A DNA stretch of 64,000 nt from Anaeroplasmataceae bacterium (GCA_045127955.1 JBGVRA010000062.1:1428-65427), one strand, 5' to 3'. Numbered from the stretch's first letter, positions 448-53,676 are shown. Translations and numbers: made by a program. The notes: generated by a model not told the origin, from the sequence alone.

Positions 448-1449
448 ATGGCTAACACAACAATTTATGATGTTGCTGGTGCTGCAAAGGTATCTTTAGC
501 AACTGTAAGTAGAGTAATGAATAATCCTGAAAAGGTTAATCCTGAAACTAGGGAAAAAGTATTAAGAGTTATAAAAGAACTTGGATATCGTCCTAATGCA
601 ATAGCTAGAGGACTTGCAAGTCGTAAGACTACAACTGTAGGTATTGTTATGGCGGATGTTTCAAGAGCTTCTACTGCTCAATTATTAGGTGGTATTATTG
701 ATATCGCTAAAAAATATGAATATTCAATTAAGATTTTTACAATCGGTGAAAATGAAGATATCCAAGATGCAATGAGAATTGTTGCTGCTGAACAAGTTGA
801 TGGTATTTTATTCTTAAATGATGAATTAGATGCTGCTAGAATGAAAGAAGCAATGGACTGTATCAAAGAAGCTCAAATTCCTGTTGTTTTATCTAATGTT
901 ATTTATGAGGAAGAAGATATTCCTTCTGTAGCTATTGATTACGAAACTGCAACTTATGAAATTACTAAACGTATGATGGCTAGTGGTAGAAAAGATATTT
1001 ATATGTTCTCTACTGTTCGTCGTTATTCTATTAATAATAAGAAGGTTGCTGGATATGTTAATGCTATGACAGAGGCTGGTTTAGAACCTAAGATTTTAAG
1101 AACTAGCGGTGATGTTTCTATTAATAGACTTCATTTTGAAGAGTTTATTAAAAATAACAATGTAGATGGTGTTTTAGCTGTTCGTGATAGTATTGCTATT
1201 AGTTTTATGAATGTTGCTATTGCTCATAATAAAAAAGTTCCAGAGGAACTTGGAATTGTAGGTTTACAAAATACTAAATATGCGATTTTGGCTAGACCTA
1301 ATTTAACTTGTGTTGATACACCGGTTTATGATATTGGTGCTGTTTCAATGAGATTGTTAACAAAATATATGAAACAAGAAGAAGTTAAGGATAATAAGAT
1401 TTTATTACCTTATCGTATTATTGAAAGAGGATCTACTACAAAAGAATAA
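448..1449 (+). CDS. ccpA: LacI-family catabolite control protein A-like regulator
   Basis: N-terminal HTH 'TIYDVAGAAKVSLATVSRVMNN' and the CcpA-like 'RPNAIARGLASRKTTTVGIVMADVS'. Start moved from the track's 394 to ATG 448, which has GAGG 8 nt upstream; the promoter occupies 394-422. Confidence 0.8.
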   Translation: MANTTIYDVAGAAKVSLATVSRVMNNPEKVNPETREKVLRVIKELGYRPNAIARGLASRKTTTVGIVMADVSRASTAQLLGGIIDIAKKYEYSIKIFTIGENEDIQDAMRIVAAEQVDGILFLNDELDAARMKEAMDCIKEAQIPVVLSNVIYEEEDIPSVAIDYETATYEITKRMMASGRKDIYMFSTVRRYSINNKKVAGYVNAMTEAGLEPKILRTSGDVSINRLHFEEFIKNNNVDGVLAVRDSIAISFMNVAIAHNKKVPEELGIVGLQNTKYAILARPNLTCVDTPVYDIGAVSMRLLTKYMKQEEVKDNKILLPYRIIERGSTTKE

Positions 1450-1487
1450 TTTCTATGATTAAAGAAAAGTAGAAATAAGATTGTTGA

Positions 1488-1640
1488 TTTTAGAGAGTCT
1501 ATGGTTGGTGTAAATAGATATAACGCTTATTTTGAATTACACTTTAGGAGAAATGTTTGTTATTGAGGGCTGTATTTTTATACAGAACTAAGGTGGTACC
1601 GCGCTTATTTAGCGTCCTTAGATTTAAGGGCGCTTTTTAT
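1488..1640 (+). promoter_or_regulatory. T-box leader (tyrosine specifier) controlling tyrS
   Basis: AGAGAG at 1492-1497. Specifier-loop GAAT-TAC-A with UAC at 1538-1540. Conserved T-box 'AACTAAGGTGGTACCGCG' at 1586-1603. Terminator AGCGTCCTT/AAGGGCGCT plus T-run at 1611-1640. Confidence 0.9.
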
Positions 1641-4966: not shown

Positions 4967-5409
4967 TGGAAAACTATATGGTCTGGGTATGGTTAGGAGT
5001 TTTCTTATTTACTATACTTATTGAAGCTTTGTCACAAGATTTGATTGCGATATGGTTTTCTTTAGGTTCACTTATTTCTTTGGTACTTTCAGCTGTACCT
5101 AATTTAGCATGGTACATTGAATTAATAGTATTTGCTTTAGTTTCTTTATTTGTAATGTTCTTAACTAGACCCTTTGCTAAGAGATTATTGTTAAATGCTA
5201 CAAGGTATACTAATATTGATGAATACGTTGGAAAAAGAGTAAGTGTAATTAAAGAAATCTCTAAATACGAAAACGGAGAAATTAAAATTAATGGTATTAT
5301 TTACCAAGCTTGCTTATTGGAAGAAGAATATGATCCAATCAAAGCAAATGAGATTGTAGAAATCGTTACTTTTAAGGGTAATAAAGTTATTGTTAGAAGA
5401 TTAGGTTAG
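4966..5409 (+). CDS. NfeD-family membrane protein (SPFH partner)
   Basis: Three N-terminal TM helices plus a C-terminal OB-like 'GKRVSVIKEI...GEIKINGIIYQA...VEIVTFKGNKVIV'. It sits immediately upstream of the stomatin gene. Confidence 0.8.
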   Translation: MENYMVWVWLGVFLFTILIEALSQDLIAIWFSLGSLISLVLSAVPNLAWYIELIVFALVSLFVMFLTRPFAKRLLLNATRYTNIDEYVGKRVSVIKEISKYENGEIKINGIIYQACLLEEEYDPIKANEIVEIVTFKGNKVIVRRLG

Positions 5410-31073: not shown

Positions 31074-34000
31074 ATGAAGAAGATTATTTATATATTATTA
31101 TTGATGTTGGTTTTGGTTCCTATTACATCATGTAAACCTAGTAAAAGGCCAACACCTACTGTAGAGACTTTAGAATATGTCGTTAGTTTTGAGTCTAATG
31201 GTGGTAGTAGCGTCTCTTCTGTTACTGTAGTTAGCGGAGAAAAAGTTAATAAACCAAGTGATCCTGTTTATGAAGGATTTGTTTTTGATGGTTGGTATAC
31301 TGATAGTGCTTTAACTTTAGAATATGATTTTAATGATGTTGTTGATAATAATCTTGTTTTATATGCTAAGTGGGTTGTTGTTGTCGATGAAAAGACTCAA
31401 GCTAAGGAAGAATTGATTGGTTTTGTTGAAGATATTAAAAGAGAATATGATGATGCTGAACTTATTAATCAAATAGATGAAATTAAGAATAGTGGTTTAA
31501 TTAAGATTGATAATGCTATAGATGTTAGTAGTTGTTTAAATGAAATTAAAGATGAAATTTTAGAGATTATTGAGTTATTTGGTAATGGTAAGGTAGAAGG
31601 ACAAATTGAATTTACTAATTATGAAGGTTTAAATGAGGCTGCAGTTATTGAATTTAATTTAAATGGTGCTAGTTCGTATAATGTTTATGTTAAAGGAAAT
31701 GATTATGAAGATTATACTTTATTAGATTATAAGAATGCTTATTATAGAAGTTTTACTGATGTTGGTCGTTTTGATTTAATTGGTTTTGAAAAAGGAGAAT
31801 ATTTCTTTAAGGTTGTTCCTGTTTTAAAAAATGAAGAATATGATTTACAGTCTGCTGTTTGTAAGGTTAGTATAGATGCTTATGATAGATCAGGATATGC
31901 TCATTATAATTATAGTGATGGTGTTGGCGCATATAATGATGATGGTACTCTAAAAGATAATGCGATTGTTATTTATGTAACTGATGAAAATAAGGATTAT
32001 GTTATGGGGAGTGTTGATGAGGTTTCATCAGTTATGTTTGATATTCCTGGTGTTGGAGGTAAGGCTTTAGGTATTGGATGGTGGCTTAATAACACTCAAT
32101 ATTCTAAGCAAGGATCTAATACTTATGATAGTAATGGTAGTAAACTTGGTTTTGATTCTTTAAATGATAGTCATCCTATTGTTATTCGTTTTGTTGGTAC
32201 TGTGACGGCACCTTTAGGGTTGACAGCTTATGATTCTACTGAATTTGGTGGTACTGTTGGTGATAATGGTAATATGGCTAGAATGAAGAATTTAAAGAAT
32301 GTTACTATTGAAGGTGTTGGTGATGATGCTGTTATTGAAGGCTGGGGATTCCACTTTATTTCTTCTGATACTACTGGTAATCGTGGTAAGAGTTTTGAGG
32401 CTCGCAATTTAACATTTAGTAAATATAGTGAAGATGCGTTAGGTATGGAAGGTGTCCAAGAAGGTGGTAAGTTAACTTCTCCTGTTCTAAGATGTTGGGT
32501 TCATCATATTACTTTCTTACCTGGATATTGTGCTAATCCTGCTGAATCTGATAAGAGTGAAGGCGATGGTTCTTGTGATTTTAAGCGTGGTATGTATTAT
32601 ACTATGGCGTATTGTTATTATGAATATTGCCATAAAACTAATTTGATTGGTTCTAGTGATGATTCACTTCAATTTAATATTAGTTTCCATCATAATATTT
32701 GGTATAATTGTGGTTCTCGTATTCCGTTATTAAGACAAGCTAATGTTCATTTTTATAATAATTATGTTTATGCTGATATTAATGATAGTAAAGCTGAGTT
32801 AAGTTATGTAGCTTCTTTAAGAGCAAATTGTTATATGTTTGCTGAAAATAATTATTTTGAAGGTTGTAAAAATGTCTATCAACAAAAGAGTGGTGTTGGT
32901 AAAGAATTTGGTAATACATATGTTCAATGTTATGGCGATTTTGATGTTGTTAAGGCAACTTCTAGAGATGAAAGTGTAAGTAGTTCTTGTGGATATAATG
33001 GAACAAGTTATGCTAATTTTGATACTAATAGTAGTTTATTTTATTATGATAGTGTTAATAAGAAAAGTGCTTGTTATATCACTGATAGTGTTACTGCAAG
33101 ACTTGAATGTTTAAAGGAATCTGGTTCTTATTATCGAACTAAACTTAATAAAACATCTTGTAGTATTGATCGTGTTTCTAATTTATATGATGTTGATGAG
33201 ACTATTAGTTTAACTGATGAAGTTTTAAATGTAAGTATTGGAACAAATATTTCAGGTATTCATTTTAGTAATAGTGGTAAGAATAAATTTAAGAATCAAG
33301 GTGTTACTTTTAGACTTGCTGACGTTGCGAAGGTTAGTATTAATATTGTTGGTAATTCTAGTGCAGCTTTAAATGATGGTTATTTGATTAGTTCAAATGG
33401 TGAAGTAATGCTTGTTGGTAGTGGAAGTGTTGTTTTAAATCCTGGTGTTTATTATATTGCTTCTTGTCAAATGGATAAAGAATCTACGTTAAATTCTTTA
33501 TCTTTTGAAAGGGTTAATTCAGAAGAATTTAATGAACAAAGAATTAAAGAATATAATGAATTAGTTTCTAAGATTGGCCAAATTAGTTATTCTTTAGATT
33601 GTTATAATCGTATTAAAGATTGTATGGATTATTATAAGGGATTAGGAGATTTACAAGCTAGTGTTGATTATAGTGTTGTTGATAATGCTTATAGTAGTTA
33701 TTTAGAACTTGGTGTTACTTATGTTAGTTCTTTAATTGATAATATTGGTGTTGTTGATAAGACGAGTGGTAGTAGTATTTATTTAGCAAGAACTGAATAT
33801 GATAAGTTAGTTAGTAAAGATGGTAGTGTTGTTGTTCCTAATTATGATGTTTTAGTTCAAGCTGAGGCTAGTTTTGAAGGTTTTGCGGTTAGTTCTTGTA
33901 TTGATAAGATTAATGATATCGGTGTTGTTGATTTAAATAGTGGTAATAAGATTATGACTGCTAGAGGTGAATATGATTTACTTAGTGTAAGTCAAAAAGA

Positions 34001-34793
34001 GCTTATTACTAATTATAATGTTTTAGTTCAAGCTGAGATTGAGTTTAATGATTTGGTTTTAATTAATGAAGTTGATGTGTTAATTAAGAATGTTAATTTA
34101 GATAATATTGATTCAATAGAAGAAGTTATTAATGGTTATAATGAGTTAAGTGATAGTAATAAAAATAGAATAGCTGATAAAGATAAATATTCTAATATTT
34201 TAGTTACTTATGTTATTAAACTAATTGATAATATTGGTGTTGTTACTAATAAATCTGGTGATGATATTAATAAAGCGTTAGCTGCATATAATAATTTAAG
34301 TGATTTGGAAAAAGAACTTATCACTAATTATGATGTTTTAGTTAGAGCTTTAGAAGATTTTAGTAATATGGTTATTGAATATAATATTAGCTGGTCTTAT
34401 AGTAGTGAAGCTGTAGCTGAAAAACCTAAGACTGGTACTACTAAAGATGGATTTGAATATAATATGAATAAGATTAGTGGTAATAGTATTTGTATTAAAC
34501 AAGGGTCTGGTCAATATGTTAAGAGTCCTGTTTTAGAATCTAGTAATGTTAGTATTACTTTTACAGTAAAAGCTATTGATACTAGCAATATTATTACTTT
34601 AGATGTTTTAGTTGTTTATACTGATGGTAGTAGTGAAGTTATTTATGTTGAGTTACCTGAAGATAAGAAGGCGTTAACTAAGACTATTGAATTTTCTGGT
34701 AAGGAAATTAGTACTGTTACTTTGAATGGTTCATCAAGCCATACATCTAAAAATGTTGGTGTTGAGGAGTTTAGTATTACTTATTTTAAATAA
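31074..34793 (+). CDS. surface lipoprotein with a Listeria/Bacteroides-type repeat, a PL1 pectate-lyase domain and C-terminal helical repeats
   Basis: Lipobox 'ITSC'. 'YVVSFESNGGS...FDGWYTD'. PL1 signature 'WVHHITF...DGSCDFKRG...HKTNLIGSSD...SFHHNIWYNCGSRIPLLRQANVHFYNNY'. Confidence 0.85.
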   Translation: MKKIIYILLLMLVLVPITSCKPSKRPTPTVETLEYVVSFESNGGSSVSSVTVVSGEKVNKPSDPVYEGFVFDGWYTDSALTLEYDFNDVVDNNLVLYAKWVVVVDEKTQAKEELIGFVEDIKREYDDAELINQIDEIKNSGLIKIDNAIDVSSCLNEIKDEILEIIELFGNGKVEGQIEFTNYEGLNEAAVIEFNLNGASSYNVYVKGNDYEDYTLLDYKNAYYRSFTDVGRFDLIGFEKGEYFFKVVPVLKNEEYDLQSAVCKVSIDAYDRSGYAHYNYSDGVGAYNDDGTLKDNAIVIYVTDENKDYVMGSVDEVSSVMFDIPGVGGKALGIGWWLNNTQYSKQGSNTYDSNGSKLGFDSLNDSHPIVIRFVGTVTAPLGLTAYDSTEFGGTVGDNGNMARMKNLKNVTIEGVGDDAVIEGWGFHFISSDTTGNRGKSFEARNLTFSKYSEDALGMEGVQEGGKLTSPVLRCWVHHITFLPGYCANPAESDKSEGDGSCDFKRGMYYTMAYCYYEYCHKTNLIGSSDDSLQFNISFHHNIWYNCGSRIPLLRQANVHFYNNYVYADINDSKAELSYVASLRANCYMFAENNYFEGCKNVYQQKSGVGKEFGNTYVQCYGDFDVVKATSRDESVSSSCGYNGTSYANFDTNSSLFYYDSVNKKSACYITDSVTARLECLKESGSYYRTKLNKTSCSIDRVSNLYDVDETISLTDEVLNVSIGTNISGIHFSNSGKNKFKNQGVTFRLADVAKVSINIVGNSSAALNDGYLISSNGEVMLVGSGSVVLNPGVYYIASCQMDKESTLNSLSFERVNSEEFNEQRIKEYNELVSKIGQISYSLDCYNRIKDCMDYYKGLGDLQASVDYSVVDNAYSSYLELGVTYVSSLIDNIGVVDKTSGSSIYLARTEYDKLVSKDGSVVVPNYDVLVQAEASFEGFAVSSCIDKINDIGVVDLNSGNKIMTARGEYDLLSVSQKELITNYNVLVQAEIEFNDLVLINEVDVLIKNVNLDNIDSIEEVINGYNELSDSNKNRIADKDKYSNILVTYVIKLIDNIGVVTNKSGDDINKALAAYNNLSDLEKELITNYDVLVRALEDFSNMVIEYNISWSYSSEAVAEKPKTGTTKDGFEYNMNKISGNSICIKQGSGQYVKSPVLESSNVSITFTVKAIDTSNIITLDVLVVYTDGSSEVIYVELPEDKKALTKTIEFSGKEISTVTLNGSSSHTSKNVGVEEFSITYFK

Positions 34794-42060: not shown

Positions 42061-42792
42061 ATGAATTATACGCATAAGTACGCTATGCAATTAAATGAAG
42101 AAATTGTCTCTCATGAAGATACATATAATATTATTTTAGATAGCCAAAAGCTATATGTGCTTAGATTTGATGGAGTTAAAATGACAAAGAACTTTTTAGG
42201 AAATCCAGATTCAAGAACTCCATTTTTTAAAACAATGAAAGAAACACTTCAATGTTTTATGGAAAATAATTTAAATTTAAAATTTGCATATTCTTTTAGT
42301 GATGAAATTTCTATTTTTTTAACTAAAGAATCATTAGAAGAATATAAGTATCGATTAGAAAAAATTATTTCTATTTATTCAAGCCAAATGGGGTTCATTT
42401 TTGCTGCTATTGCTACCAAAAATAAATTAAATCTTGATGGGAAAATTAGAGCATTTGATTGTAGAATTATCGAGTTCGATAATATGTATGAAATTAGGGA
42501 ATATTTTGTTTCAAGACAAGTATTCCAAATTTCGAGTCATTTTCTAAGATTGAAATATTTATATTTACCTAAGCTAAAAGCAACCAATACTGATATTATT
42601 AAGGTTAATTTAAAGAGTCATGGAATAGATTATGATAAATTAAGTAAATCAGAAAAATACGGTTTTTTATATGTTGAAGATTGTTTTCAACAAATATATG
42701 AGTTTTTAGAAAATAGAGATAAGTTAATGCATCAATTAGAGCTTAATCCTCAATTTGTCTATATGAAAAAACTAGAAAAGAGAAGAAAATAA
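42061..42792 (+). CDS. Thg1-like protein (tRNA-His guanylyltransferase family, 3'-5' nucleotidyltransferase)
   Basis: 'YVLRFDGVKMTKNF' and 'FAYSFSDEISIFL' carry the Thg1 palm-domain carboxylates (D ... DE). Confidence 0.65.
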   Translation: MNYTHKYAMQLNEEIVSHEDTYNIILDSQKLYVLRFDGVKMTKNFLGNPDSRTPFFKTMKETLQCFMENNLNLKFAYSFSDEISIFLTKESLEEYKYRLEKIISIYSSQMGFIFAAIATKNKLNLDGKIRAFDCRIIEFDNMYEIREYFVSRQVFQISSHFLRLKYLYLPKLKATNTDIIKVNLKSHGIDYDKLSKSEKYGFLYVEDCFQQIYEFLENRDKLMHQLELNPQFVYMKKLEKRRK

Positions 42793-43622
42793 TGTTTAAA
42801 ATAGGATGTCATTTATCAATTAGTAATGGCTTTTTGAAAGCTGCTAAAAATATTATTTCCTTAGGTGGAAACACATATCAATACTTTTCAAGAAATCCTC
42901 AAGGTGGTAAAGCTAAACCATGGAATCAAAAAGATTTTGAAGGTTTTATGGAATATGCTAAAACAGTTGGAATTGAAGTTTTATTATGTCACGCACCATA
43001 TACTTTAAATGCTTGTTCAGCTAATCCTGATACTAGAGAATTTGCTAGAATGGTTATGAAATCAGATATAGAAATGTTAGAACATTTTCCTAATGCTTTA
43101 TATAATTTTCATCCAGGAAGTCATACAGGACAAGGTGTAGAAGTAGGTATTAATCAAATTGTAGAAATACTTAATGAGGTATTATATCCTGAAATGAAGA
43201 CTACAGTGTTACTTGAATGTATGGCTGGCAAAGGTAGTGAAATTGGTAGAAGTTTTGAGGAAATAAAAGATATTATTTCTAAGGTTAATCTAAATGAAAA
43301 ATTAGGTGTTTGTTTAGATACTTGTCATGTTTATTCTGCTGGATATGATATAGTAAATAACCTAGATGGTGTATTAGATGAATTTGATAGAGTTATTGGT
43401 TTAGATAGATTAAAGGCTATACATTTAAATGATTCATTAATGCCTTTTAATTCTAATAAAGATAGACATGCTAAAATTGGTGAAGGTAGTATTGGTAGTG
43501 AGGCTATAATTAGGATTATTAATCATCCAAAACTTTCACATTTACCATTTTATTTAGAAACTCCTAATGAAGATGAGGGTTATAAACAAGAAATTGAATT
43601 TTTAAAACAAAGTAGAAGATAA
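42792..43622 (+). CDS. nfo: endonuclease IV
   Basis: 'IGCHLS', 'HAPYTLN', 'NFHPGSH', 'CLDTCH', 'IHLNDS', 'DRHAKIGEG'. ATGA-type junction with the upstream gene. Confidence 0.9.
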   Translation: MFKIGCHLSISNGFLKAAKNIISLGGNTYQYFSRNPQGGKAKPWNQKDFEGFMEYAKTVGIEVLLCHAPYTLNACSANPDTREFARMVMKSDIEMLEHFPNALYNFHPGSHTGQGVEVGINQIVEILNEVLYPEMKTTVLLECMAGKGSEIGRSFEEIKDIISKVNLNEKLGVCLDTCHVYSAGYDIVNNLDGVLDEFDRVIGLDRLKAIHLNDSLMPFNSNKDRHAKIGEGSIGSEAIIRIINHPKLSHLPFYLETPNEDEGYKQEIEFLKQSRR

Positions 43623-43754
43623 TGCTAAAAAATCAAATAGTTTTTTTAACAAAAAAATAGAATATAATAAAAGTATAGTCAAGATATTTGAGGTTATTAT
43701 TACAACCTCAAGTACATTGACTTTTTTTTATAGCCAAGAATATGAGAGGAAATC

Positions 43755-44141
43755 ATGAAAAAACAAGAAATAAGACATTATCTACAAATATTAAGAAAGA
43801 ATAAATACTTAGAAAAAAATAGTAAAGGTATATATAAAGTAAATATATATAAAAGAAAAAAAGAAATAGAGATCCCCAAATGGGTATTTATGGTTTTTAA
43901 CTATTTAAAAGAAGTCATTAAAAATAGTAAGGATTTATTAATTAAAGGAATTATTAAAATGTATTATTTTGATAATTTAAAGGATTTAGAGATTATATCT
44001 AAGTTACCAATAAGTGAAACATTATACTACAAATATAAAAGAAGTATTGAAGATAATATATATCATGTACTTATTTATGAAGGATTTGTAACAAAAAAAG
44101 AAATAGAAATGGAGGTGAAAATAGATGGATATGATAATTGA
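43755..44141 (+). CDS. small basic protein with a sigma-region-4/ArpU-RinA-like C-terminal HTH (putative locus regulator)
   Basis: GAGAGGA RBS. '...IKMYYFDNLKDLEIISKLPISETLYYKYKRSIEDNIY...'. The family assignment is inferred by eye. Confidence 0.45.
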   Translation: MKKQEIRHYLQILRKNKYLEKNSKGIYKVNIYKRKKEIEIPKWVFMVFNYLKEVIKNSKDLLIKGIIKMYYFDNLKDLEIISKLPISETLYYKYKRSIEDNIYHVLIYEGFVTKKEIEMEVKIDGYDN

Positions 44142-44523
44142 TTTAGTTAATAAATATGGATTAAATACTGTAATATTAGCATTAATAATAAATATATTAA
44201 CTCAAGTATTAAAACTACCAATTACGAAAATAACTGATGATAAAAATATAACAAGATTTATAGTGTTTATGCCTATAATAATAGGATTTATAGTTACATA
44301 TTTATTTAAACTTATTATTTATAAAGAAGTAGTATTTAATCAAGAGTTTATGAATTTATATATTAGATCAACAAGCTTAAGCCTATCATTTTATGCGATA
44401 TTTGAAAAAATATTTCCTAAAAAGAAAATAGAAGATGGAACTATAGAAGCAAGCCAAGAAGTAATAAACATGCTAAATAAAGTAATTGAAGAAGAAAAGA
44501 TAGTATTAAAGGGGAAAAGGTAA
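44125..44523 (+). CDS. holin-like small membrane protein
   Basis: GGAGGTG 7 nt upstream. Two or three hydrophobic helices followed by a highly charged C-tail. It ends 2 nt before the RHS start. Confidence 0.5.
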   Translation: MDMIIDLVNKYGLNTVILALIINILTQVLKLPITKITDDKNITRFIVFMPIIIGFIVTYLFKLIIYKEVVFNQEFMNLYIRSTSLSLSFYAIFEKIFPKKKIEDGTIEASQEVINMLNKVIEEEKIVLKGKR

Positions 44524-44525
44524 GT

Positions 44526-47500
44526 ATGGGAATAATAAAATTAAATAAGAAAAAAGAAGAACAAATAGTATATGAAAAAGAAAATCTTCCTGTTAAAAAA
44601 GAAAAGAAGAAATATGATAATAAGAAGGTAGTATGTGAAGTAGAAGAAAAGAAAAATGAATATGTAAGTACATATTTATTAAATGATGGGACATATGAAC
44701 AAATAATAACAAGTGAAGCATCAAATTATTATGATGAAGAAGAAAAGAAATATAAGAGTATAGATAATGAATTATTCTTAGATGGTGATGTATATAAAAA
44801 TAAAGAAGGAAAATATAGATTTGAGATATTAAAACCTGAAAAGGGTAATAATGTAAAAATTAGTAAAAAGGATATAAGTATATCTTGGGAATATTTAGGG
44901 AAGAAGAACTCTAGAAATGAATTAGTATTAAATCAGAAGTTAGATATTAAAAATAATAATAAGAAAAATAGTAAAGTTAGATATGAAAATATAGAAGTTG
45001 ATTCAGATATTGAATATGTCTTAAGTGGAAATAATATCAAAGAAAATATAATAGTAAAAGAAAAAAGTAGCCAATATGAATATTCTTTTATGCTAGATAT
45101 AAAAGATATGGTATTAAAATTATCTAGTGATAAGACAAAAATAGAAATATATAAGGGTGAAGAAAAAGAATTTGAAATCCCAGCCCCATATATGTATGAC
45201 AGCACAGGAGAAGTAAGTGATGAAGTATATTATGAAGTAGAACCAACAAGTGATGGAAAATATGTATTTAGTGTAATTGCCGAAGCTAGTTGGATTAATG
45301 ATAACAAAAGAGTCTTACCAGTTACAATTGATCCACAAATTGAAGTAGAAAGTAATAAGATAATAAGCTGGAAAACAGAAAAAAGAGTAGTAAATATAGT
45401 AGGTGGCAAAGAAGAATATGGAGTATGGGAAGAAGTAACACAACCAATGTTAAGAGTATATAAGGGAGGAGGTTTAGAATATAGGAGTATAATAACAATT
45501 AATAAAGCCTTAATTAATGGATATGTAGGAGAATTTTGTAATGCAAGATTAAATATAAAAGCAGATAGAGTATACATAGGAAGTATGTTAGTAAATGGAA
45601 AAAATGTAGATGTTAAAACAATTAATTTATCTATTGATGTAATATCAGATGATTATGAAAAAGCAATAGATAAATTAGATATTATCTTAACAAGTAATTG
45701 TAGTGAAAATATATATTTTGATGTTAATAATAATCCGCCTACCTTTACAATTAATTACATAGAAAATGAACATATAAATCATGTTAAAAAGACATTTAAT
45801 TTAGCTAATATAGCTACATCAGAACTTGATTTAGTAACAGGAGATTTAGTAACTAGTATACCTACAGTATTATCAGATTTAACTTTAGGTGTTCCTATTT
45901 ATCATGTTTATAAAAAGGGAGTAGATGATTATAATTTAGGATGTAATTTCAAATTAAATTTACATGAAAAATTAATTAAAAACGAAGGATTATATTATAC
46001 ATATATTGATTCAAATGGTTATAAGCATATAGTAAGAGAATTTAATTACTATAATGATATAAATGATAATAAGGTATATATAAGTGACAAAGAAAATATA
46101 GAAGTAAGTATAGATGGAAGTTTAAAATATAATTCAAATGGAATATATTATAATGTATATAGAGAATATAAATCAATAACAGGATTAGAATTAATAACTA
46201 AGTTAAGTGATTATAAAAATATAGAATTTGTTGAACAAAGAACAGAAGAGATTAAGACTTTAGAAGAACAAATAAAAGCATATGAAAAAGTATTGAAAGA
46301 ATATAGTATTTACAAAATAAAACAACGTAACAATGAATATGTTATAGATGAAAATTGGTATTCAACTATTGTGAATTTAGAAGCATATTTAAATAGTGCA
46401 GATAAAATAAAAGAATTTTTAGAAGTGTTAAGTGTTTCATATGATTATTATTTACTAAGTAAAAATGAATTTGAAACATATTATTCATTAGAGGTTCAAA
46501 ATGAAGGTTTATGGCTACAAGATGAGTTATTGACTATAGAATATAATAATAATTCAAATGTAGTAGAAAAAGAATATAGTCTAGCAAAGAAAAATAATAA
46601 TTCTGGTCAACTGTTAATAGTTATTAATCAACAACAAAAGATATTAAATCAAAGTCTAGAAAATGTTCAAATAATTAAAGATTACTATAAAGAATATAGT
46701 TTATTAAAAGACAAATTAAATCAATTATATTTAACAACCCCAGAAAATTATTTAACAAATGGAAAAATATTAAAAGGATTTAACAGGGATGGAGATTTAA
46801 TAGTAATATATGATATGTATGAAAATTATGTAGTAATAGAATATGAAAGCTATTTACTTAATGATAATACATATCAAAAAAGAATAGGTAGAGTATATGA
46901 TAATTATAATAGATGTGTAATATTAAATTATTCTAATGATTCACACATGTTATTATCAATAACTGACACAAAAGGAAGAAAAACAAGCTTTGGATATATT
47001 GATGGTTATTTAAATAATATTACCTATGATACAGGCGAATATATTGTATTATCATATTATGATGATAATATTACGTCAGTAATAGAAGATAAAAGATGTT
47101 TTAAGACTACAATATCATATATTTATGGTAGACCAGTAAGTTTTAAAAACGAATCATACATCAAAACCATTAGTAAAAATGTTTTAACTAAAGAATTTAT
47201 GGAAATATCTAAAATGTCATTATCATATTCCCCAATTGATATGTATCCAGTTAAGGGTGTCACAATAACAAATAATTTGAATAAAGAAACATATATTTTT
47301 GATAATACAGGATTTAATACAGAATATAGATTATATGAAAATAATAAAGTAGTTAAAGCTTTAAGATATGAATATATACCATATTGGAAAGGTGGAGTAG
47401 CTCAAAATAATCCTAGATCTGTAGTTACATCTACAACTAAGGATTCATTATATAAGTCTTCATTTATATTTACTACAGGAGATGTAGTAACAACAACATT

Positions 47501-50225
47501 AAATGAAGATAATAAAGCTAGTGTTGTATCAACATCAAATATAGCTATATCAGACTCATTTAAAGAACAAATAACAATTTATTATACATATGATAATAAA
47601 AAATTAACTAAAGAGGTTACAGTAATTAATTATTTGGATAATACTGATACTATTTTTAAAACAATAACACATATAAAAAATTATTATTATAATTTAGCTT
47701 TTGATATAATTAAAACAGTAAGTTATGTTGAAGGTGAAGAATTAATAAATGGTAAAATGGTTGAAGAAGTAGTTTATGATAATAAAGGAAATATTATTCA
47801 ATCATTTAGTTATAATACATTAGATCCAACTAATAAATTCTATAAAGAAAGTGAATATAATGAATTAGGACAAGTAATTAAAGAATTAGACCAATTAGGT
47901 ATTCATAAGAAATTATATGAATATTTTAATAATACGAATATTATTAAAAATATGGTATTACCAAACGGAAGTATAATATCATATGGATGTGATATTGACG
48001 ATACTATTACATCCATCACAGCATCAACAACAGAAGGTGAAGAAAACTGTAATAACCAAGTATTAAGATGTGGTGAAGTAGTTGAGGTAAATAGTGGAAA
48101 TAACAACATTAAGTATAAGCTAGATCATAAGCGAAGAATTATCAGTGTAGATGTTAATGGTGTAGTTGATTATGTGGTTAATACATATGAAGAAACAACA
48201 TCAAATGGAGTTATTACAGAAACTAAGGTGACATCTTCATATAAAGATGGAACAACAGTTATTAAAAGATATGATGGATTAGGGAAACTAATAGATTCAA
48301 CAGAACATGGAAATTTACATTTATCTTTTGATGAAAAAGGAAGAGTAACAAATATAAGTGATGCAAGTTTATATCAATCAACAACATTAACATATGATGA
48401 ATTTGATAATATTGAAGTTTATGAATTAAAAGATATGAATGGTCTTCCTATAATCCAGGAAACTAATACATATGATGGATATGGCAATTTATCCACAAGT
48501 ACATATAGAGGCTATGTAAATCATGTCTATAGTATGATGTATAGTGAAGATTCAGTAAAAAGATTAAGAAGAATTGGATTTAGTAAAAGCTATAATAATT
48601 ATTCTTTTGAAGCATTAGTAGATAAATTAGGAAGAAATATAGGAAAAAGAATATATGATGATTTAGATGTTGTTTTAGAAGAAAAAATATCATATTTAAA
48701 ACAAGGAGATCATACAACTAACATTGTCCAATCTATTACATTTGTTAGAACAAATGATAATATAAGATATGCCTTTGATAATATGGGAAATATTACAAAG
48801 GTATATGAAAATAAAGAACTAGCAGTAAGATATTTATATGATAATCTAAATAGATTAATAAGAGAAGATAATAAGGTATTAAATAAAACAATACTAATAG
48901 CATATGATTCAAATGGAAATATAATAAATAAAAGAAAAACAGGATTTACATTAAAAGATAATATATTAGTAGAAGAATTAGAAACAAGTGATGTAGCTTA
49001 TATTTATAATGGAGATAAATTATTATCATATGGTAATCAATCTATTACATACGATGTATTAGGAAGACCTACAAGCTTTATGGGTAAAACTATAACATGG
49101 GTAAAGGTAAATCAAATCACTAAAATAGATAATTTAGAATTTAAGTATGATAGTTTAGGAAGAAGAGTTAAAAAAGGAAATATTGATTTTATCTATGATA
49201 GTAACAATAGACTAATCAAACAAGGTGATTTAGAATTTATTTATGATCATACAGGATTAGCAGGAATAATAAATGGAATCACCGGATATTTCTATAGAAA
49301 AAATGCCCAAGGTGATATTATAGCATTAGTTGACAGAAGTGGAAATGTTGTAGTAAAATATGTATATGATGCATGGGGTAATCATAAGATATTTGATAAT
49401 GATGGTAATGAAATTACTTCATCAACACATATTGGTGTTATTAATCCATTTAGATATAGAGGATATTATTATGATGAGGAAACTCAGCTTTATTGGGTAT
49501 CCTCACGTTACTATTCGCCTGAATTATGCAGATGGATTTCACCGGATTCAATCGAATATTTAGATCCTGAAAGTATCAATGGATTAAACTTATACTGCTA
49601 CTGCATGAATAATCCGATTATGTACTACGATCCTAGTGGACATTCGCCAGAATGGTGGCAATGGGCATTATTTGGAGTCGGAGCTGCTTTGGTTGTAGTA
49701 GCTGCTGGAATGGCTATTCTAGGAACTGGTGGTATCGCAGCTTTTGGTTTAGGAGCTTTAATAGGTTCTTTAGGTTTAGGAGCAGGAGGAGCTGTAGTCG
49801 GTGGAGCCATTGGTTATGCCGTTGATGGTGTTGATGGTATATTAGGTGGAGCGTTAGCGGGATTTGGCATTGGAGCTATCGTAGGATTTGTAGTTGGTGG
49901 AACAATAGGTTATTATAATTCGCTTGTCAAGGTAGATATAAGAAAATTTACAGAATATGTATTAGAACCATCAAATAGTAAAGGAAAAGATGTCATATTT
50001 AAAAATTTAGGTTATGATAAAACAAACGCAAAATCATTAGTGCGACTATATAAAAGACAAGGTGTAAAAAACCTAGTTTTTAAAAGTTACAAACTTGGTA
50101 AGTTGGATATACACGGTCAAAGAATCAACATGGCAATAAGAATTGGAAATAAAGTCTTGAATAGTGCGTGGATACAGGTAGGAAAAGGTATCAGATTAGT
50201 TTCACCATTTGTTGGATTTTTATAG
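44526..50225 (+). CDS. RHS/YD-repeat polymorphic toxin (1,899 aa)
   Basis: Dozens of YD repeats (e.g. 'YDGLGKLIDS', 'YDVLGRPTSF', 'YDSLGRRVKK'). RHS-associated core 'VKYVYDAWGN...FRYRGYYYDEETQLYWVSSRYYSPELCRWISPDS...NNPIMYYDPSGH'. Variable C-terminal tip. No signal peptide. Confidence 0.95.
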   Translation: MGIIKLNKKKEEQIVYEKENLPVKKEKKKYDNKKVVCEVEEKKNEYVSTYLLNDGTYEQIITSEASNYYDEEEKKYKSIDNELFLDGDVYKNKEGKYRFEILKPEKGNNVKISKKDISISWEYLGKKNSRNELVLNQKLDIKNNNKKNSKVRYENIEVDSDIEYVLSGNNIKENIIVKEKSSQYEYSFMLDIKDMVLKLSSDKTKIEIYKGEEKEFEIPAPYMYDSTGEVSDEVYYEVEPTSDGKYVFSVIAEASWINDNKRVLPVTIDPQIEVESNKIISWKTEKRVVNIVGGKEEYGVWEEVTQPMLRVYKGGGLEYRSIITINKALINGYVGEFCNARLNIKADRVYIGSMLVNGKNVDVKTINLSIDVISDDYEKAIDKLDIILTSNCSENIYFDVNNNPPTFTINYIENEHINHVKKTFNLANIATSELDLVTGDLVTSIPTVLSDLTLGVPIYHVYKKGVDDYNLGCNFKLNLHEKLIKNEGLYYTYIDSNGYKHIVREFNYYNDINDNKVYISDKENIEVSIDGSLKYNSNGIYYNVYREYKSITGLELITKLSDYKNIEFVEQRTEEIKTLEEQIKAYEKVLKEYSIYKIKQRNNEYVIDENWYSTIVNLEAYLNSADKIKEFLEVLSVSYDYYLLSKNEFETYYSLEVQNEGLWLQDELLTIEYNNNSNVVEKEYSLAKKNNNSGQLLIVINQQQKILNQSLENVQIIKDYYKEYSLLKDKLNQLYLTTPENYLTNGKILKGFNRDGDLIVIYDMYENYVVIEYESYLLNDNTYQKRIGRVYDNYNRCVILNYSNDSHMLLSITDTKGRKTSFGYIDGYLNNITYDTGEYIVLSYYDDNITSVIEDKRCFKTTISYIYGRPVSFKNESYIKTISKNVLTKEFMEISKMSLSYSPIDMYPVKGVTITNNLNKETYIFDNTGFNTEYRLYENNKVVKALRYEYIPYWKGGVAQNNPRSVVTSTTKDSLYKSSFIFTTGDVVTTTLNEDNKASVVSTSNIAISDSFKEQITIYYTYDNKKLTKEVTVINYLDNTDTIFKTITHIKNYYYNLAFDIIKTVSYVEGEELINGKMVEEVVYDNKGNIIQSFSYNTLDPTNKFYKESEYNELGQVIKELDQLGIHKKLYEYFNNTNIIKNMVLPNGSIISYGCDIDDTITSITASTTEGEENCNNQVLRCGEVVEVNSGNNNIKYKLDHKRRIISVDVNGVVDYVVNTYEETTSNGVITETKVTSSYKDGTTVIKRYDGLGKLIDSTEHGNLHLSFDEKGRVTNISDASLYQSTTLTYDEFDNIEVYELKDMNGLPIIQETNTYDGYGNLSTSTYRGYVNHVYSMMYSEDSVKRLRRIGFSKSYNNYSFEALVDKLGRNIGKRIYDDLDVVLEEKISYLKQGDHTTNIVQSITFVRTNDNIRYAFDNMGNITKVYENKELAVRYLYDNLNRLIREDNKVLNKTILIAYDSNGNIINKRKTGFTLKDNILVEELETSDVAYIYNGDKLLSYGNQSITYDVLGRPTSFMGKTITWVKVNQITKIDNLEFKYDSLGRRVKKGNIDFIYDSNNRLIKQGDLEFIYDHTGLAGIINGITGYFYRKNAQGDIIALVDRSGNVVVKYVYDAWGNHKIFDNDGNEITSSTHIGVINPFRYRGYYYDEETQLYWVSSRYYSPELCRWISPDSIEYLDPESINGLNLYCYCMNNPIMYYDPSGHSPEWWQWALFGVGAALVVVAAGMAILGTGGIAAFGLGALIGSLGLGAGGAVVGGAIGYAVDGVDGILGGALAGFGIGAIVGFVVGGTIGYYNSLVKVDIRKFTEYVLEPSNSKGKDVIFKNLGYDKTNAKSLVRLYKRQGVKNLVFKSYKLGKLDIHGQRINMAIRIGNKVLNSAWIQVGKGIRLVSPFVGFL
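49479..49568 (+). repeat. 90-bp RHS-core homology block, copy 1 (in the main gene)
   Basis: 84/90 identical to 50632-50721. The first 39 nt are identical. Confidence 0.9.
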
Positions 50226-50240
50226 GAGTGATAGTGTTAT

Positions 50241-50438
50241 ATGGGAAAAATAGAATTATATCAAACAGTAAAACTTATAACTAATGAGTATGAGGATAGT
50301 GGGTTAAAAAAAGGATCAATAGGGACAATTTTAGAAATCTATGATGAAAAAACCTTTGAAATTGAATGGTACGATTTATTAGGTAATGTAATTTATATGT
50401 GTGCTTTTAATATTAATGATTTTGAAGTTATTAGTTAA
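50241..50438 (+). CDS. DUF4926-like small protein, candidate cognate immunity protein
   Basis: 65 aa: 'LYQTVKLITNEYEDSGLKKGSIGTILEIYDEKTFEIEWYDLLGN' (SH3-like). AGGAGTG RBS. Starts 15 nt after the RHS stop. Confidence 0.6.
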   Translation: MGKIELYQTVKLITNEYEDSGLKKGSIGTILEIYDEKTFEIEWYDLLGNVIYMCAFNINDFEVIS

Positions 50439-50589: not shown

Positions 50590-51378
50590 TTAAGATATGG
50601 TTATTATGAGGATACTCGTAATAGCCCTGTCGAAACTCAGCTTTATTGGGTATCCTCACGTTACTATTCGTCTGAATTATGTCGTTGGATTTCACCAGAT
50701 TCAATCGAATATCTAGATCCTCAAAATATTAATGGTTTAAACTTATATGCGTACTGTGGCAATGATCCAATTAACAAATACGATCCTACAGGACACTTTG
50801 GAATCGGATTAACATTACTAATTGCTACTGGCGTTGGTTTAGCTTTTGGTTTTGGTATAGAAGTTGTAAAACAAGCATCTGATGGTGGTAAATTTTGGGA
50901 TTTAAGCACATGGAACTGGAATTTAAGTACGTGGAATTGGTGGGAAATTGGTAAGGCGTCGCTGATAGGAGCAGCAACAGGTTTTGCATATGGTTTAGGC
51001 GGTGTGGCCGGAGGCATTGTAAAAGGATCATTCAAGGCACTAACTATTGCCGGCAAAGCTTTAACGGTTTCACAATCTGTTGGATTGCTATTAGGAACCG
51101 CAGCAGCCACTAATTTCGTTGCTGGAGTTGCTGGATATGCGATGCATACTGCTGGTTCTGAAACTGAAAGTTTTAATATTTTAAAAGGGATTTCAGAAGG
51201 AATTGGTCAAACTGGTAAAGGAGTATTATCATTCTTTACTGCTGGAATGTATGTTGGTTCTGGAGTATGGAAAGTTGGAGTTGGTGCAAAAAATACTTTT
51301 TCATCAATTTTAGGAAGAGCCGCCAGTAAATTTATAGTTAATTACGTACCAAACTATATGTTTGAAAATTTATTCTAA
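50590..51378 (+). CDS. orphan RHS C-terminal cassette (core end plus alternative glycine-rich membrane toxin tip), no start codon
   Basis: The frame is open from 50590. 'YGYYEDTRNSPVETQLYWVSSRYYSSELCRWISPDSIEYLDPQNINGLNLYAYCGNDPINKYDPTGH', then about 193 aa of Gly-rich hydrophobic sequence. The track shows only its 3' part (51004-51378). Confidence 0.8.
   Translation, partial: LRYGYYEDTRNSPVETQLYWVSSRYYSSELCRWISPDSIEYLDPQNINGLNLYAYCGNDPINKYDPTGHFGIGLTLLIATGVGLAFGFGIEVVKQASDGGKFWDLSTWNWNLSTWNWWEIGKASLIGAATGFAYGLGGVAGGIVKGSFKALTIAGKALTVSQSVGLLLGTAAATNFVAGVAGYAMHTAGSETESFNILKGISEGIGQTGKGVLSFFTAGMYVGSGVWKVGVGAKNTFSSILGRAASKFIVNYVPNYMFENLF
50632..50721 (+). repeat. 90-bp RHS-core homology block, copy 2 (in the orphan cassette)
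   Basis: 84/90 identical to 49479-49568. Confidence 0.9.
50902..50943 (+). repeat. 21-nt tandem duplication inside the orphan toxin (LSTWNWN / LSTWNWW)
   Basis: 'ttaagcacatggaactggaat' and 'ttaagtacgtggaattggtgg' are adjacent and in frame. Confidence 0.85.
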
Positions 51379-51393
51379 TAAAGGAGAATCTTG

Positions 51394-51855
51394 ATGGTTA
51401 AAATTAAATTGAAATTATTTGAATCTATAGTCGGTGCTATATTATTGCCAAATATAGGATTGTTTTTTACAACGTTATTATTAATCATCTCATTAATAGT
51501 TAAACAAGAACCGATTGTATATAAAGGAATTCTAATTTCATATATAGTTTGCTTATCTTTGATGATTTTTACTTTAGTTAGCTGTTTTTTAGTAAATAAA
51601 AAAAGCATAAAAGAATTTGTTTTAAAAGATAGTGAAATTGAATTTCTTAATCATACTTATCTAACAGATCAAGTAAGTTCTTGTGAATATTATGTATGTA
51701 AATGGTATGCATTGCCGATAGCACTAATCTATAAACAACAAGCGGCGGGATTAATTACCTTTAAATTCAATTCTGGTGAAAAAATTCAATTTAAAATATT
51801 CTATAAAGATTATCTAAAATTAAAAAATAAATTTAAAAATATTATTGTAAAATAG
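51394..51855 (+). CDS. membrane protein (2 TM plus C-terminal beta-rich domain), candidate immunity protein for the orphan toxin
   Basis: AGGAG 7 nt upstream of ATG 51394. Starts 16 nt after the orphan cassette stop. Confidence 0.6.
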   Translation: MVKIKLKLFESIVGAILLPNIGLFFTTLLLIISLIVKQEPIVYKGILISYIVCLSLMIFTLVSCFLVNKKSIKEFVLKDSEIEFLNHTYLTDQVSSCEYYVCKWYALPIALIYKQQAAGLITFKFNSGEKIQFKIFYKDYLKLKNKFKNIIVK

Positions 51856-51879: not shown

Positions 51880-51915
51880 GGGTAAGTTTACTCTATGGGT
51901 AGGCTTACCTTTTAT
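51880..51915 (+). terminator. rho-independent terminator
   Basis: GGGTAAG ... CTTACC followed by TTTTATTT. Confidence 0.55.
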
Positions 51916-52455
51916 TTAATCTATATTAATAGATTATTTGATAGAAAAATGTTATATTAAAGTATAAATTTATGAAAGGCATATGAACAAGAAAAAAGAA
52001 TTTAATGTTTTAAGAATTTTATATATTTGTTGGTCTATCATCATTGTTGCAAATGTTATCTCATTTAGCATTTCAAAGGAAACTAAAACACTGTATTAGA
52101 AGGTTAAAAGACATTTATATTACAAAATAATAATTTAATAGAAGTAATACCTAATTTTACACAAGAATCTCAAAGAAGAAATATAATAAAATACATTGGT
52201 TCAAAGAAAATATAGCAGGAAAAGAATTAATTTTAGAATTATCATATGATTTTTTTTTGATTACTCTTATTTTACTATTAACATAAATGTATTTAATTCT
52301 ATTTAGGAGGGAATTTAAATGAAGAAATTGATACTTATTTTGAAAATGAATTTGTAGAAGAGTTTTTTTCTATTGATAATTTAATTGAATATGATAAAGA
52401 TATAGTTAAATTAATTGAAAGTGATAAATATATTTGTGCATATTTAAGTAATGAA

Positions 52456-52839
52456 GTGAAAGATGTTTTAGATAATATTACGACAAAAGAGTCTAATTAT
52501 TTATCGATGGGTATTGATAATTATTTAGAAAAGTATGAATATGCAACTCATAATAATTTTATAGATAGAGATAAATATTTATTAGCTTGGTATGAGTTTA
52601 ATAATGAAGGTGATATAGTTGATGAATTAAATGGCTATTTTTTAGTTTGTGTTGGGAAAACTTTTAATTTAAATAATAAAATTGTATGTGTAGATATTAA
52701 TTCTTCAGTATATAAAGAGATTAGTGATAGTGATTATTTATATTTAGGTGATATAATTAATTGTGATGCTGTTTTATTATATTCATTAATGAATAATTTA
52801 TTTAAGTTTAAAACTATTGATAATGAAATTTATATTTGA
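52456..52839 (+). CDS. acidic hypothetical protein (upstream half of a TGA-interrupted frame)
   Basis: The frame is open from 52297 without a start codon. GTG 52456 lacks an RBS, and the RBS-linked ATG 52319 is out of frame. Confidence 0.35.
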   Translation: MKDVLDNITTKESNYLSMGIDNYLEKYEYATHNNFIDRDKYLLAWYEFNNEGDIVDELNGYFLVCVGKTFNLNNKIVCVDINSSVYKEISDSDYLYLGDIINCDAVLLYSLMNNLFKFKTIDNEIYI

Positions 52840-53010
52840 TTAGATGAAGAAATTAGACCTTGTGAATGTAAGGTAATTGATGATGAAAATTATTACAAAT
52901 TAAATGATATTTATGATATTAAATCTAGAGAATATAAAACTATTGAATTATCTAATAAATTAATAGTTGAATTAGATGAATTTCTTTATTCTTCTTTAGG
53001 TGAATACTCA

Positions 53011-53676
53011 TTGCCTCCAACATCTTTTGAAATAAAAATTAATAGAGTAAAAAATGGTGAAGATTTAATGTATGTTAAGTATGATAATGATAATTATTAT
53101 TATGCTTGTGCATATTATAATTCTTCTCATACAGAAGAATATCGTTATTGTTGTAAAGATAAATATGTTTGGGTTGGATATGAAAGTGAAGAAGATATTC
53201 AAAAATATTATAAAGGTAATGAATTAGTGGTTTCTTTCCAAATTAATAAAGCTTTAGATAAGGTTGATTTATTAACTGGTAAAAATATAGATTTTAATGT
53301 AGAACATTATCAAATTTATCAAGTAGAATTTAATGAAGATAATTATAATATATCTTCAAAGATTGAATTTAATGATTATTTCATTATGATAACTGATTTA
53401 TCTGATGATGCATATTATTCTAAAGATATTTTCTATCATATTTTAGTTAATTTTGATTGTGTTGAATTAGATGGTAAAATATATATTATGTCATGGCTTG
53501 GTTTTAAAGATGGTGATGGTTATACCCAAAGCTTACAGGATGAATTTGGGAAGTATTATGATGTGTTACTAGAGTTTATGCTAGATGATATATATAGTTA
53601 TACTAATAAAAGTGGAATTGTAGAGTACTATGGTTTATTTGAAGTAGAAGATATTGTTAATTTAATAAACGGATAA
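53011..53676 (+). CDS. acidic hypothetical protein (downstream half of the same frame)
   Basis: Same frame as 52456-52839 and open from 52840. TTG 53011 has AGGTGA 7 nt upstream. Confidence 0.45.
   Translation: MPPTSFEIKINRVKNGEDLMYVKYDNDNYYYACAYYNSSHTEEYRYCCKDKYVWVGYESEEDIQKYYKGNELVVSFQINKALDKVDLLTGKNIDFNVEHYQIYQVEFNEDNYNISSKIEFNDYFIMITDLSDDAYYSKDIFYHILVNFDCVELDGKIYIMSWLGFKDGDGYTQSLQDEFGKYYDVLLEFMLDDIYSYTNKSGIVEYYGLFEVEDIVNLING

Follow-up and report, generated by a model that had tools for sequence, protein, structure and literature searches.

An RHS toxin of an Anaeroplasmataceae bacterium with an exchangeable glycine-rich hydrophobic module, a DUF6883-like tip and a predicted DUF4926 immunity partner

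In this study, we analysed a stretch of 64,000 nucleotides from an Anaeroplasmataceae bacterium (GCA_045127955.1 JBGVRA010000062.1:1428-65427), which as a whole is called the window in the following. The host is a very AT-rich bacterium and kin of uncultured gut Bacillota. The locus of interest is an RHS/YD-repeat polymorphic toxin gene together with the small gene directly behind it (Table 1). The last 193 residues of the encoded protein, which lie beyond the RHS-associated core, form its C-terminal toxin (CT) and consist of a glycine-rich hydrophobic module and a basic tip. The gene behind the RHS gene encodes a DUF4926 protein, the predicted immunity factor, and an orphan CT cassette follows. 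An earlier note on this DNA had pointed to the hydrophobic segment, to a DUF6883-like domain and to a DUF4926-like neighbour, and here these parts are assessed by family searches, structure models and a comparison of related loci.

Table 1. Features of the toxin locus and its neighbourhood in the window (main cassette first, then flanking features)
Feature	Position	Strand	Basis
RHS/YD-repeat polymorphic toxin gene	44526..50225	+	Open reading frame (ORF), 1899 aa
RHS-associated core end, terminating in ...NNPIMYYDPSGH	49365..49643	+	TIGR03696, aa 1614-1706
Pre-toxin hydrophobic module, 91 aa	49644..49916	+	Composition, uncharged runs; aa 1707-1797
Basic toxin tip, 102 aa, DUF6883-like / BECR-Tox3	49917..50222	+	PF21814; aa 1798-1899
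Predicted immunity gene, DUF4926, 65 aa	50241..50438	+	PF16277
Orphan RHS-CT cassette without own start codon	50590..51378	+	Translation
154-aa protein with two transmembrane segments, candidate membrane immunity protein for the orphan CT	51391..51855	+	ORF, transmembrane segments
Terminator-like hairpin closing the unit	51880..51910	+	Pattern match alone
Terminator-like hairpin 5' of the unit	43685-43714		Pattern match alone
DUF1492/ArpU-like regulator, 128 aa	43755..44141	+	PF07374, 23.5 bits (cut-off 21.5); weak phrog_248 and TIGR01637
132-aa protein with two transmembrane segments and charged C-terminal tail, holin-like shape	44125..44523	+	Transmembrane segments
276-aa ORF after the Thg1-like gene	42792..43622		
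Very acidic ORF, 127 aa, net charge -11	52456..52839		No family match
Very acidic ORF, 221 aa, net charge -23	53011..53676		No family match

The repeat profile PF05593 RHS_repeat matched the 1899-aa protein in three stretches with 47.7 bits (cut-off 22), and TIGR01643 matched with 24.9 bits (cut-off 15.8). The core profile TIGR03696 Rhs_assc_core reached 74.7 bits against a cut-off of 32.5, and its match ends in DPSGH (aa 1702-1706, nt 49629-49643), exactly where the earlier note had placed it. This sequence fits PxxxxDPxG[LH] and, by analogy with RHS/TcC proteins, is the presumed aspartyl autoproteolysis site that would free the CT. No hydrophobic signal sequence was found in the first 80 aa of the RHS protein, and no recognised wall-binding domain was matched in it. 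Among the GTDB representatives searched, which do not include the genome of the window, the best RHS relatives were 25-66% identical and belong to metagenome-assembled genomes (MAGs) of gut Bacilli/Firmicutes.

The module directly follows the core end and starts with the junction SPEWWQW, behind which three Gly/Ala-rich hydrophobic stretches are arranged. It contains about 30% Gly, 18% Ala and 3% charged residues, compared with 5% Gly, 2% Ala and 27% charged residues in the RHS core. The two longest uncharged runs of the protein (57 and 31 aa) both lie inside it, and the longer one, which begins at aa 1710, would be expected with a chance of ~2e-8 per given position at the frequency of charged residues in the core. 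In the third stretch, Gly recurs at CT positions 65, 69, 73, 77, 81 and 85, and the five consecutive GxxxG motifs formed in this way make up a perfect zipper. The module thereby shows what characterises a glycine zipper, namely a hydrophobic helix in which (G/A/S)xxxG repeats follow one another in register, and Gly residues are enriched in it at a spacing of eight (p ~0.007). No Pfam or NCBIfam family matched the module at E<=1, and no homology to any described family was detected. The earlier note had described about 90 hydrophobic, GxxxG-rich residues; the length, the Gly-rich character and the zipper in the third stretch agree with this, whereas the overall number of GxxxG motifs is that expected from composition. 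An antisense ORF of 61 aa over the module (49625-49810, minus strand) was rejected as a gene, as it is the Pro/Ala-rich mirror of the Gly (GGN) codons.

The tip corresponds to the soluble domain of roughly 100 aa that the earlier note had seen behind the hydrophobic part and had assigned to DUF6883. It is strongly basic, with 20 Lys and Arg residues against 6 Asp and Glu residues and a net charge of +14. PF21814 DUF6883 aligned to the isolated tip over profile positions 8-107 of 110 with E=2e-5 and 25.2 bits. This score lies below the threshold of the family, and therefore homology was checked transitively. The closest relative of the tip (P0002) is likewise sub-threshold for PF21814, with 25.5 bits. 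A word-indexed search with the tip returned a single fragment, and its relatives came to light when 1.84 billion representative proteins were searched exhaustively with HMMER; 180 representative clusters passed E<=1e-3, and 46 of these also passed E<=1e-10. PF21814 was matched (E<=1e-3) in 127 of the 145 relatives that were scanned, with a best E of 1.9e-11, so that this family name is borne out. In full-length relatives the domain ends within a few residues of the C terminus of the protein, and their N-terminal parts consist of RHS, PT-HINT, PT-TG, PT-VENN/DUF637, PAAR, WXG100-like or Phage_Mu_F modules. A C-terminal domain behind such varied modules shows the pattern of a polymorphic toxin tip.

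In an alignment of 21 sequences (A3), the residues K10, F11, Y14, G23, K24, G32, Y33, L41, G67, Q68, W85, P97, F98 and G100 are invariant. The window tip keeps all of them, and also the nearly invariant Q48 and R69; in the wider set of 145 sequences, Y33 and F98 are less than 90% conserved. It falls into a small divergent clade without the 8-residue insertion between strands beta2 and beta3. Judged by its sequence, the tip is a divergent but intact relative of DUF6883 that is filed outside the curated membership. The possibility that it is an inactive remnant was rejected, since all family-invariant residues are present and the cassette is 84-88% conserved on another intact RHS gene (L022). 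Neither the tip nor the immunity protein matched an entry of PHROGs or NCBIfam.

Within the literature searched, DUF6883 is mentioned by a single source, a bioRxiv preprint of August 2026 (10.64898/2026.08.28.747851), in which it appears as the new profile 'BECR-Tox3'. By computational assignment, the profile networks of the preprint put BECR-Tox3 among those BECR-fold ribonucleases that form the colicin-like branch. A conserved downstream DUF4926 gene is presumed there to be the immunity partner, and fusions to Phage_Mu_F as well as stand-alone pairs are described, while Rhs, transmembrane or glycine segments are not mentioned. Our AlphaFold2 (AF2) model of the tip, built from a 74-sequence alignment, reached a predicted local distance difference test score (pLDDT) of 96.9 and a predicted TM-score (pTM) of 0.88. 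It comprises a short strand, the helices H9-15, H24-30 and H35-54, and the four antiparallel strands E59-64, E67-76, E79-88 and E91-101. Compared with the description in the preprint, this is the colicin-like topology '[pre-alpha + alpha-beta1-beta2-beta3-beta4]', and the conserved K10 and Y14 (pre-helix) as well as T/S96-P97-F98 (last strand) lie where the preprint locates colicin-like active sites. The sole significant match to the tip model in BFVD is another family member, fused to a viral 'metallopeptidase'. A BECR fold class is thus plausible for the tip on the basis of the model. The tip is most likely an RNase, and by analogy its substrate would probably be tRNA or another small RNA. 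In the earlier note the activity had been called unknown; the preprint now predicts a BECR-fold RNase.

The 65-aa ORF lies 15 nt behind the RHS stop codon, with GGAG ~10 nt 5' of its ATG. PF16277 DUF4926 matched its product over the complete profile (positions 1-57 of 57) with 42.3 bits (E=4.8e-11; cut-off 29.1), and this family name of the earlier note is confirmed as well. The protein is acidic (net charge -7) and has no transmembrane or hydrophobic segment. Its AF2 model, made with 11 close sequences, is a five-stranded barrel (pLDDT 93.2), for which Foldseek found SH3 domains and KOW-type barrels as best PDB neighbours (TM-score 0.65-0.73, E from 7e-3); for the immunity protein, nothing relevant was found among PDB sequences by phmmer or by profile search. 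The 65-aa protein is probably the cognate immunity factor of the tip, which it would neutralise, probably by binding. The neighbourhood of DUF6883 and DUF4926, which the earlier note had called frequent, is found both in the preprint (10.64898/2026.08.28.747851) and at the loci of the three closest relatives of the tip (L015, L016 and L022). At L016, the gene 3' of the P0004 toxin (4826-5182) encodes a DUF4926-like domain, a charged linker and a C-terminal transmembrane helix, and thus a membrane-anchored version of the immunity protein. Such an anchor fits a toxin that emerges at the membrane.

Module, tip and immunity gene were compared across related loci. In L022/L024, the main CT of a 2261-aa RHS protein with a Laminin_G_3 domain carries a module 88% and a tip 84% identical to those of the window, followed by a 65-aa DUF4926 protein. 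The corresponding values are 74% and 59% in L015, whose 65-aa DUF4926 protein is 63% identical to that of the window, and 39% and 43% in L016, where the protein of 118 aa combines a sub-threshold DUF4926 match (E=4.9e-5) with the C-terminal membrane anchor. In L019-21, an orphan that ends an orphan array has a 65-aa DUF4926 protein downstream. The CT and immunity cassette of the window is found again in L022, where the RHS backbone is a different one, and in L019 as an orphan, and the DUF4926 gene is located 3' of the tip in the window, L015, L016 (sub-threshold), L019-21 and L022-24. A search with the hydrophobic module alone recovered two other cassettes. The main CT of L006 has a module 84% identical to that of the window, an unrelated tip (21%) and an unrelated downstream gene of 104 aa, and the orphan CT of L004 combines a module 79% identical with a tip that is again unrelated (21%); the 118-aa gene downstream of it does not match DUF4926. 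Behind these two CTs, which share the hydrophobic module only, the DUF4926 gene is absent. Immunity co-varies with the tip and not with the hydrophobic module. Since one module is combined with unrelated tips and unrelated immunity genes, immunity tracks the tip, and this favours a role of the module in insertion or entry over lethality. The earlier note had named a pore-former and an entry module as the two options for the membrane segment, and the comparison favours the latter.

We further catalogued every CT located after the RHS core-end motif, both in the window and in the related loci retrieved, which come from MAGs of gut Bacilli/Firmicutes including 'Staphylococcus sp. CAG:324', and obtained 15 distinct CTs. 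All 15 open with an uncharged Gly/Ala-rich stretch directly after DPxGH, and about half of them start with the junction (S/A/D)PEWWQW or a near variant. Some, including the orphan CT of the window, have no recognisable soluble tip. Where the neighbours of all-hydrophobic CTs were read (the orphans of the window and of L006), a hydrophobic transmembrane-type protein comes next, as would be expected of immunity to a membrane toxin; in L006 a 184-aa hydrophobic CT precedes a 197-aa hydrophobic protein (922..1515). In distant RHS-type proteins with the tip, a spacer of 68-193 aa always lies between core end and tip, and it is transmembrane-like in 6 of 15. Eight other soluble tips of the lineage gave no match in Pfam save one sub-threshold DUF4160, and from their sequences the tips of this lineage look like a pool of unclassified toxin domains. 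Most soluble tips catalogued in L004, L006, L007, L010, L011, L012, L015 and L016 are without Pfam match; they include tips that contain 'VPVYRGGNS', 'HFVKHGSEFG', 'ELHHIVEQ', 'NHPNRWK' and 'HPNGKYGPHYHP'. A decayed copy of the cassette was observed in L002 (6644-7313) and L003 (276-945), where a further RHS gene and a serine recombinase precede it. What is left there is a truncated toxin (P0001) with the module and half a tip, and a segment that matches the immunity protein over residues 20-63 at 84% identity.

From the observed architecture, family links and modularity we infer a bipartite CT of an interbacterial toxin, in which a membrane-insertion or entry module is joined to an RNase-like DUF6883 tip and countered by DUF4926 immunity. 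We assign this reading a probability of roughly 55%. As family knowledge suggests, the RHS shell would cleave itself after DPSGH and free the 193-aa CT. The first 91 residues of the CT (SPEWWQW and three Gly/Ala-rich helices, the last one a zipper) would then insert into the cytoplasmic membrane of the target and carry, or let through, the basic domain of 102 aa. In the target cytoplasm, the DUF6883/'BECR-Tox3' tip would act as an RNase, and the producer and its kin would be protected by the acidic SH3-like DUF4926 protein, probably through binding to the tip. The orphan CT, which lacks a promoter and has a candidate membrane immunity gene of its own, could replace the resident CT via the 164-nt core-end repeat. 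There are precedents for such a division of labour: in the DNase Tde1, membrane permeabilisation and delivery into prey both require the GxxxG zipper (PMC10240207), and CdiA-CTs are bipartite with exchangeable entry domains (PMC11630599).

Several points weigh against this reading. The gathering score of PF21814, 27 bits, is missed by the isolated tip (25.2 bits) and by the full protein (19.0 bits). Many relatives have a His before the invariant GK (xHGK), where the window has SKGKD, and this would count if the His were catalytic; we consider it non-essential, because it is not conserved across the family. Foldseek with the tip model found nothing significant in the PDB (best E=0.33, TM-score 0.37-0.45), phmmer and a profile search of the tip against PDB sequences gave no relevant match, and in the literature searched no biochemistry is reported on members of DUF6883/BECR-Tox3 or DUF4926. 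Over the whole module, GxxxG motifs do not exceed the expectation from composition (10 seen, 7.9 +/- 2.0 expected), and the RHS protein has no signal peptide to account for its exit from the producer. In addition, a glycine-zipper segment is lethal by itself in EsxX (PMC12744356), and so is the hydrophobic fragment of the Rhs toxin Tse5-CT (PMC10684867).

The module might accordingly be a lethal pore-former or depolariser like EsxX, TelE and Tse5-CT, with the tip as a second toxin or an accessory. This would agree with the membrane depolarisation caused by glycine-zipper C-terminal domains of LXG and Rhs toxins (PMC12744356; PMC10684867), with the DNase-independent growth inhibition ascribed to the zipper region of Tde1 (PMC10240207), and with the purely hydrophobic CTs found several times in the same lineage, the window orphan included. 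Nevertheless, we regard it as unlikely, given that modules 79-84% identical occur with three tips, and with three small genes downstream of these, that are unrelated to one another. No protector against a common pore-former is shared among these cassettes, and the 65-aa protein of the window is soluble. Furthermore, two all-hydrophobic CTs are followed by transmembrane-type proteins, whereas the main CT of the window is followed by a soluble acidic SH3-like protein, and its tip has retained every family-invariant residue. As the three cassettes that share the module share no immunity function, the module is unlikely to be the killing activity itself; it may well contribute some toxicity of its own, by analogy with the zipper region of Tde1. 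For the tip, a RelE/ParE-like fold without RNase activity has to be considered; such a tip could poison gyrase as ParE does, or act on some other target in the cytoplasm. The strongly basic character of the tip (+14), the placement of the family in the colicin-like RNase branch by the profile networks of the preprint, and the invariant K10, Y14, K24, Q48, Q68 and R69, which resemble an enzyme site in their placement on pre-helix, long helix and edges of strands, all speak for an RNase instead. The best structural neighbours of the tip, none of them significant, are nevertheless ParE (6xrw, 8c26), ahead of HigB and RelE, all of them BECR-fold toxins, and RNase activity is reported for no family member in the literature searched; overall, we consider a non-RNase tip improbable.

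We also see little chance that the module works on the producer side, where it could keep the CT unfolded or packed in the shell, or could anchor or export it, perhaps together with the 132-aa protein. The module lies distal to the cleavage site and would thus leave with the toxin, and the tip-bearing RHS proteins of other lineages with their spacers of 68-193 aa (hydrophobic in 6 of 15) argue in the same direction. A producer-side role would suit the missing signal peptide and the two-transmembrane, holin-shaped gene that ends immediately before the RHS start; yet L007, which has the same junction, possesses a signal-like N-terminal segment and no such upstream gene. That all CTs of the lineage open hydrophobic, often with SPEWWQW, may reflect a constraint that comes from the shell or from the site of cleavage.

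The tips of WapA from B. subtilis act as tRNases. WapA-type RHS toxins (B. subtilis, S. suis; PMC12704120) resemble the protein of the window as monoderm YD/RHS proteins with a polymorphic CT and an adjacent immunity gene, but the window protein lacks a signal peptide and a recognised wall-binding domain, and its CT has the hydrophobic pre-toxin module. With the BECR-Tox3/DUF4926 pairs of the preprint, the locus shares a near-whole DUF6883 profile, a DUF4926 gene directly downstream and the topology of the AF2 model. It differs in that its tip lies below the gathering score and in the divergent clade without the beta2-beta3 insertion, and in that this tip sits on an RHS shell with a hydrophobic module, in contrast to the stand-alone pairs and Phage_Mu_F fusions. 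As in CdiA-CT (PMC11630599), a two-part CT follows a conserved junction, the parts recombine independently and immunity is specific for the toxic part. The carrier in the window, however, is an RHS shell in low-GC Bacillota and not a two-partner-secretion filament, and its candidate entry part is a short, uncharged Gly/Ala helix bundle, whereas that of CdiA is a folded domain that hijacks a specific inner-membrane protein. Tde1, a DNase of the Agrobacterium type VI secretion system (PMC10240207), is likewise a nuclease-type toxin preceded by consecutive GxxxG motifs; unlike the window protein, it is a small effector of a diderm, loaded by PAAR and adaptor, and its zipper is N-terminal and at the same time the region that binds the adaptor. 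The window CT has in common with S. aureus EsxX (PMC12744356) and with Tse5-CT of P. aeruginosa (PMC10684867) a hydrophobic Gly-rich C-terminal toxin fragment, which in Tse5 is encapsulated in the RHS shell and delivered to the membrane (PMC10684867). The orphan CT of the window with its transmembrane neighbour looks like the EsxX/Tse5 type, while the main CT adds a conserved soluble, enzyme-like tip, and its immunity protein is soluble and SH3-like and not a membrane protein.

The orphan cassette consists of ~69 codons of core end (...DPTGH), followed by a 193-aa Gly-rich hydrophobic CT (50797-51375) without soluble tip. A direct repeat of 164 nt with 84% identity (49479-49642 and 50632-50795) connects the RHS core end with the orphan. 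This core-end repeat is the usual substrate for CT displacement, and the orphan can replace the resident CT by recombination. The orphan CT also contains a repeated 'LSTWNW' motif. The 154-aa protein behind it is weakly similar to an ORF in L016. Separate from the main cassette, this pair probably represents a toxin that acts on membranes and the membrane protein that confers immunity to it. The two terminator-like hairpins bracket a co-oriented set of genes, namely the regulator, the 132-aa transmembrane protein, the RHS gene, the immunity gene, the orphan CT and its partner. The regulator and the 132-aa protein gene (43755..44523) may belong to the toxin system; homologues of these genes were found neither beside related RHS loci nor in viral contigs. 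The stop codon of the 132-aa gene ends three bases before the RHS ATG. Its interpretation as a phage holin was rejected, as it had no family match and no relative in viral contigs. The RHS gene of L007 (5267..11596), which has the same junction, encodes an N-terminal signal-like hydrophobic segment and is without such upstream genes. Holin-type export has been proposed for large clostridial toxins, and by analogy the 132-aa protein could provide a route of this type.

Housekeeping genes of the chromosome surround the locus (PFOR, DapA, shikimate pathway, ABC exporters). Regional GC content is ~20-30% and rises to 42% in the Gly-rich CT segments. Past the terminator (51900-53676), short broken reading frames and the two very acidic ORFs were observed, which may represent immunity genes that have become orphans or what is left of earlier cassettes. 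Directly 5' of the toxin unit (42061-43622) lies a gene for a Thg1-like protein of the tRNA-His guanylyltransferase family (PF04446, 49.6 bits), followed by the 276-aa ORF (42792..43622). In bacteria, proteins of the Thg1-like kind mend the 5' ends of tRNAs, and the position of this gene near a predicted tRNA-type RNase toxin may be a coincidence. Further upstream, at 31074-34793, a 1239-aa protein with a Listeria-Bacteroides repeat and a pectate-lyase-like domain is encoded, which is probably a surface or secreted protein and unrelated.

RHS toxin-immunity cassettes with orphan modules are textbook knowledge, and apart from module exchange the cassette described here is a textbook polymorphic toxin locus. 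The pairing of DUF6883 with DUF4926 and the BECR assignment are already contained in the preprint (10.64898/2026.08.28.747851). In the literature searched we found neither an association of the tip with RHS shells nor an exchangeable SPEWWQW/Gly-zipper pre-toxin module common to unrelated tips in RHS proteins of low-GC gut Bacillota. The locus offers a compact and well-modelled representative of DUF6883/BECR-Tox3 (102 aa, pLDDT 96.9) together with an SH3-like immunity partner. Little work has been devoted to the RHS toxins of Gram-positive and uncultured gut bacteria. One module with three unrelated tips and three unrelated immunity genes is a natural domain-swap series, with which the passage of a cytoplasm-acting toxin across the target membrane, after its release from the RHS shell, becomes directly testable. 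Tentatively, and with more doubt than for the bipartite CT as such, the SPEWWQW-Gly/Ala module might be an autonomous, exchangeable and self-translocating cassette that pushes any soluble toxin of ~100 aa across a monoderm membrane without receptor or injection machine. If so, the module would be a Gram-positive, lipid-acting counterpart of the CdiA entry domains, and the mostly unannotated tips of this lineage would be a reservoir of new cytoplasmic toxins.

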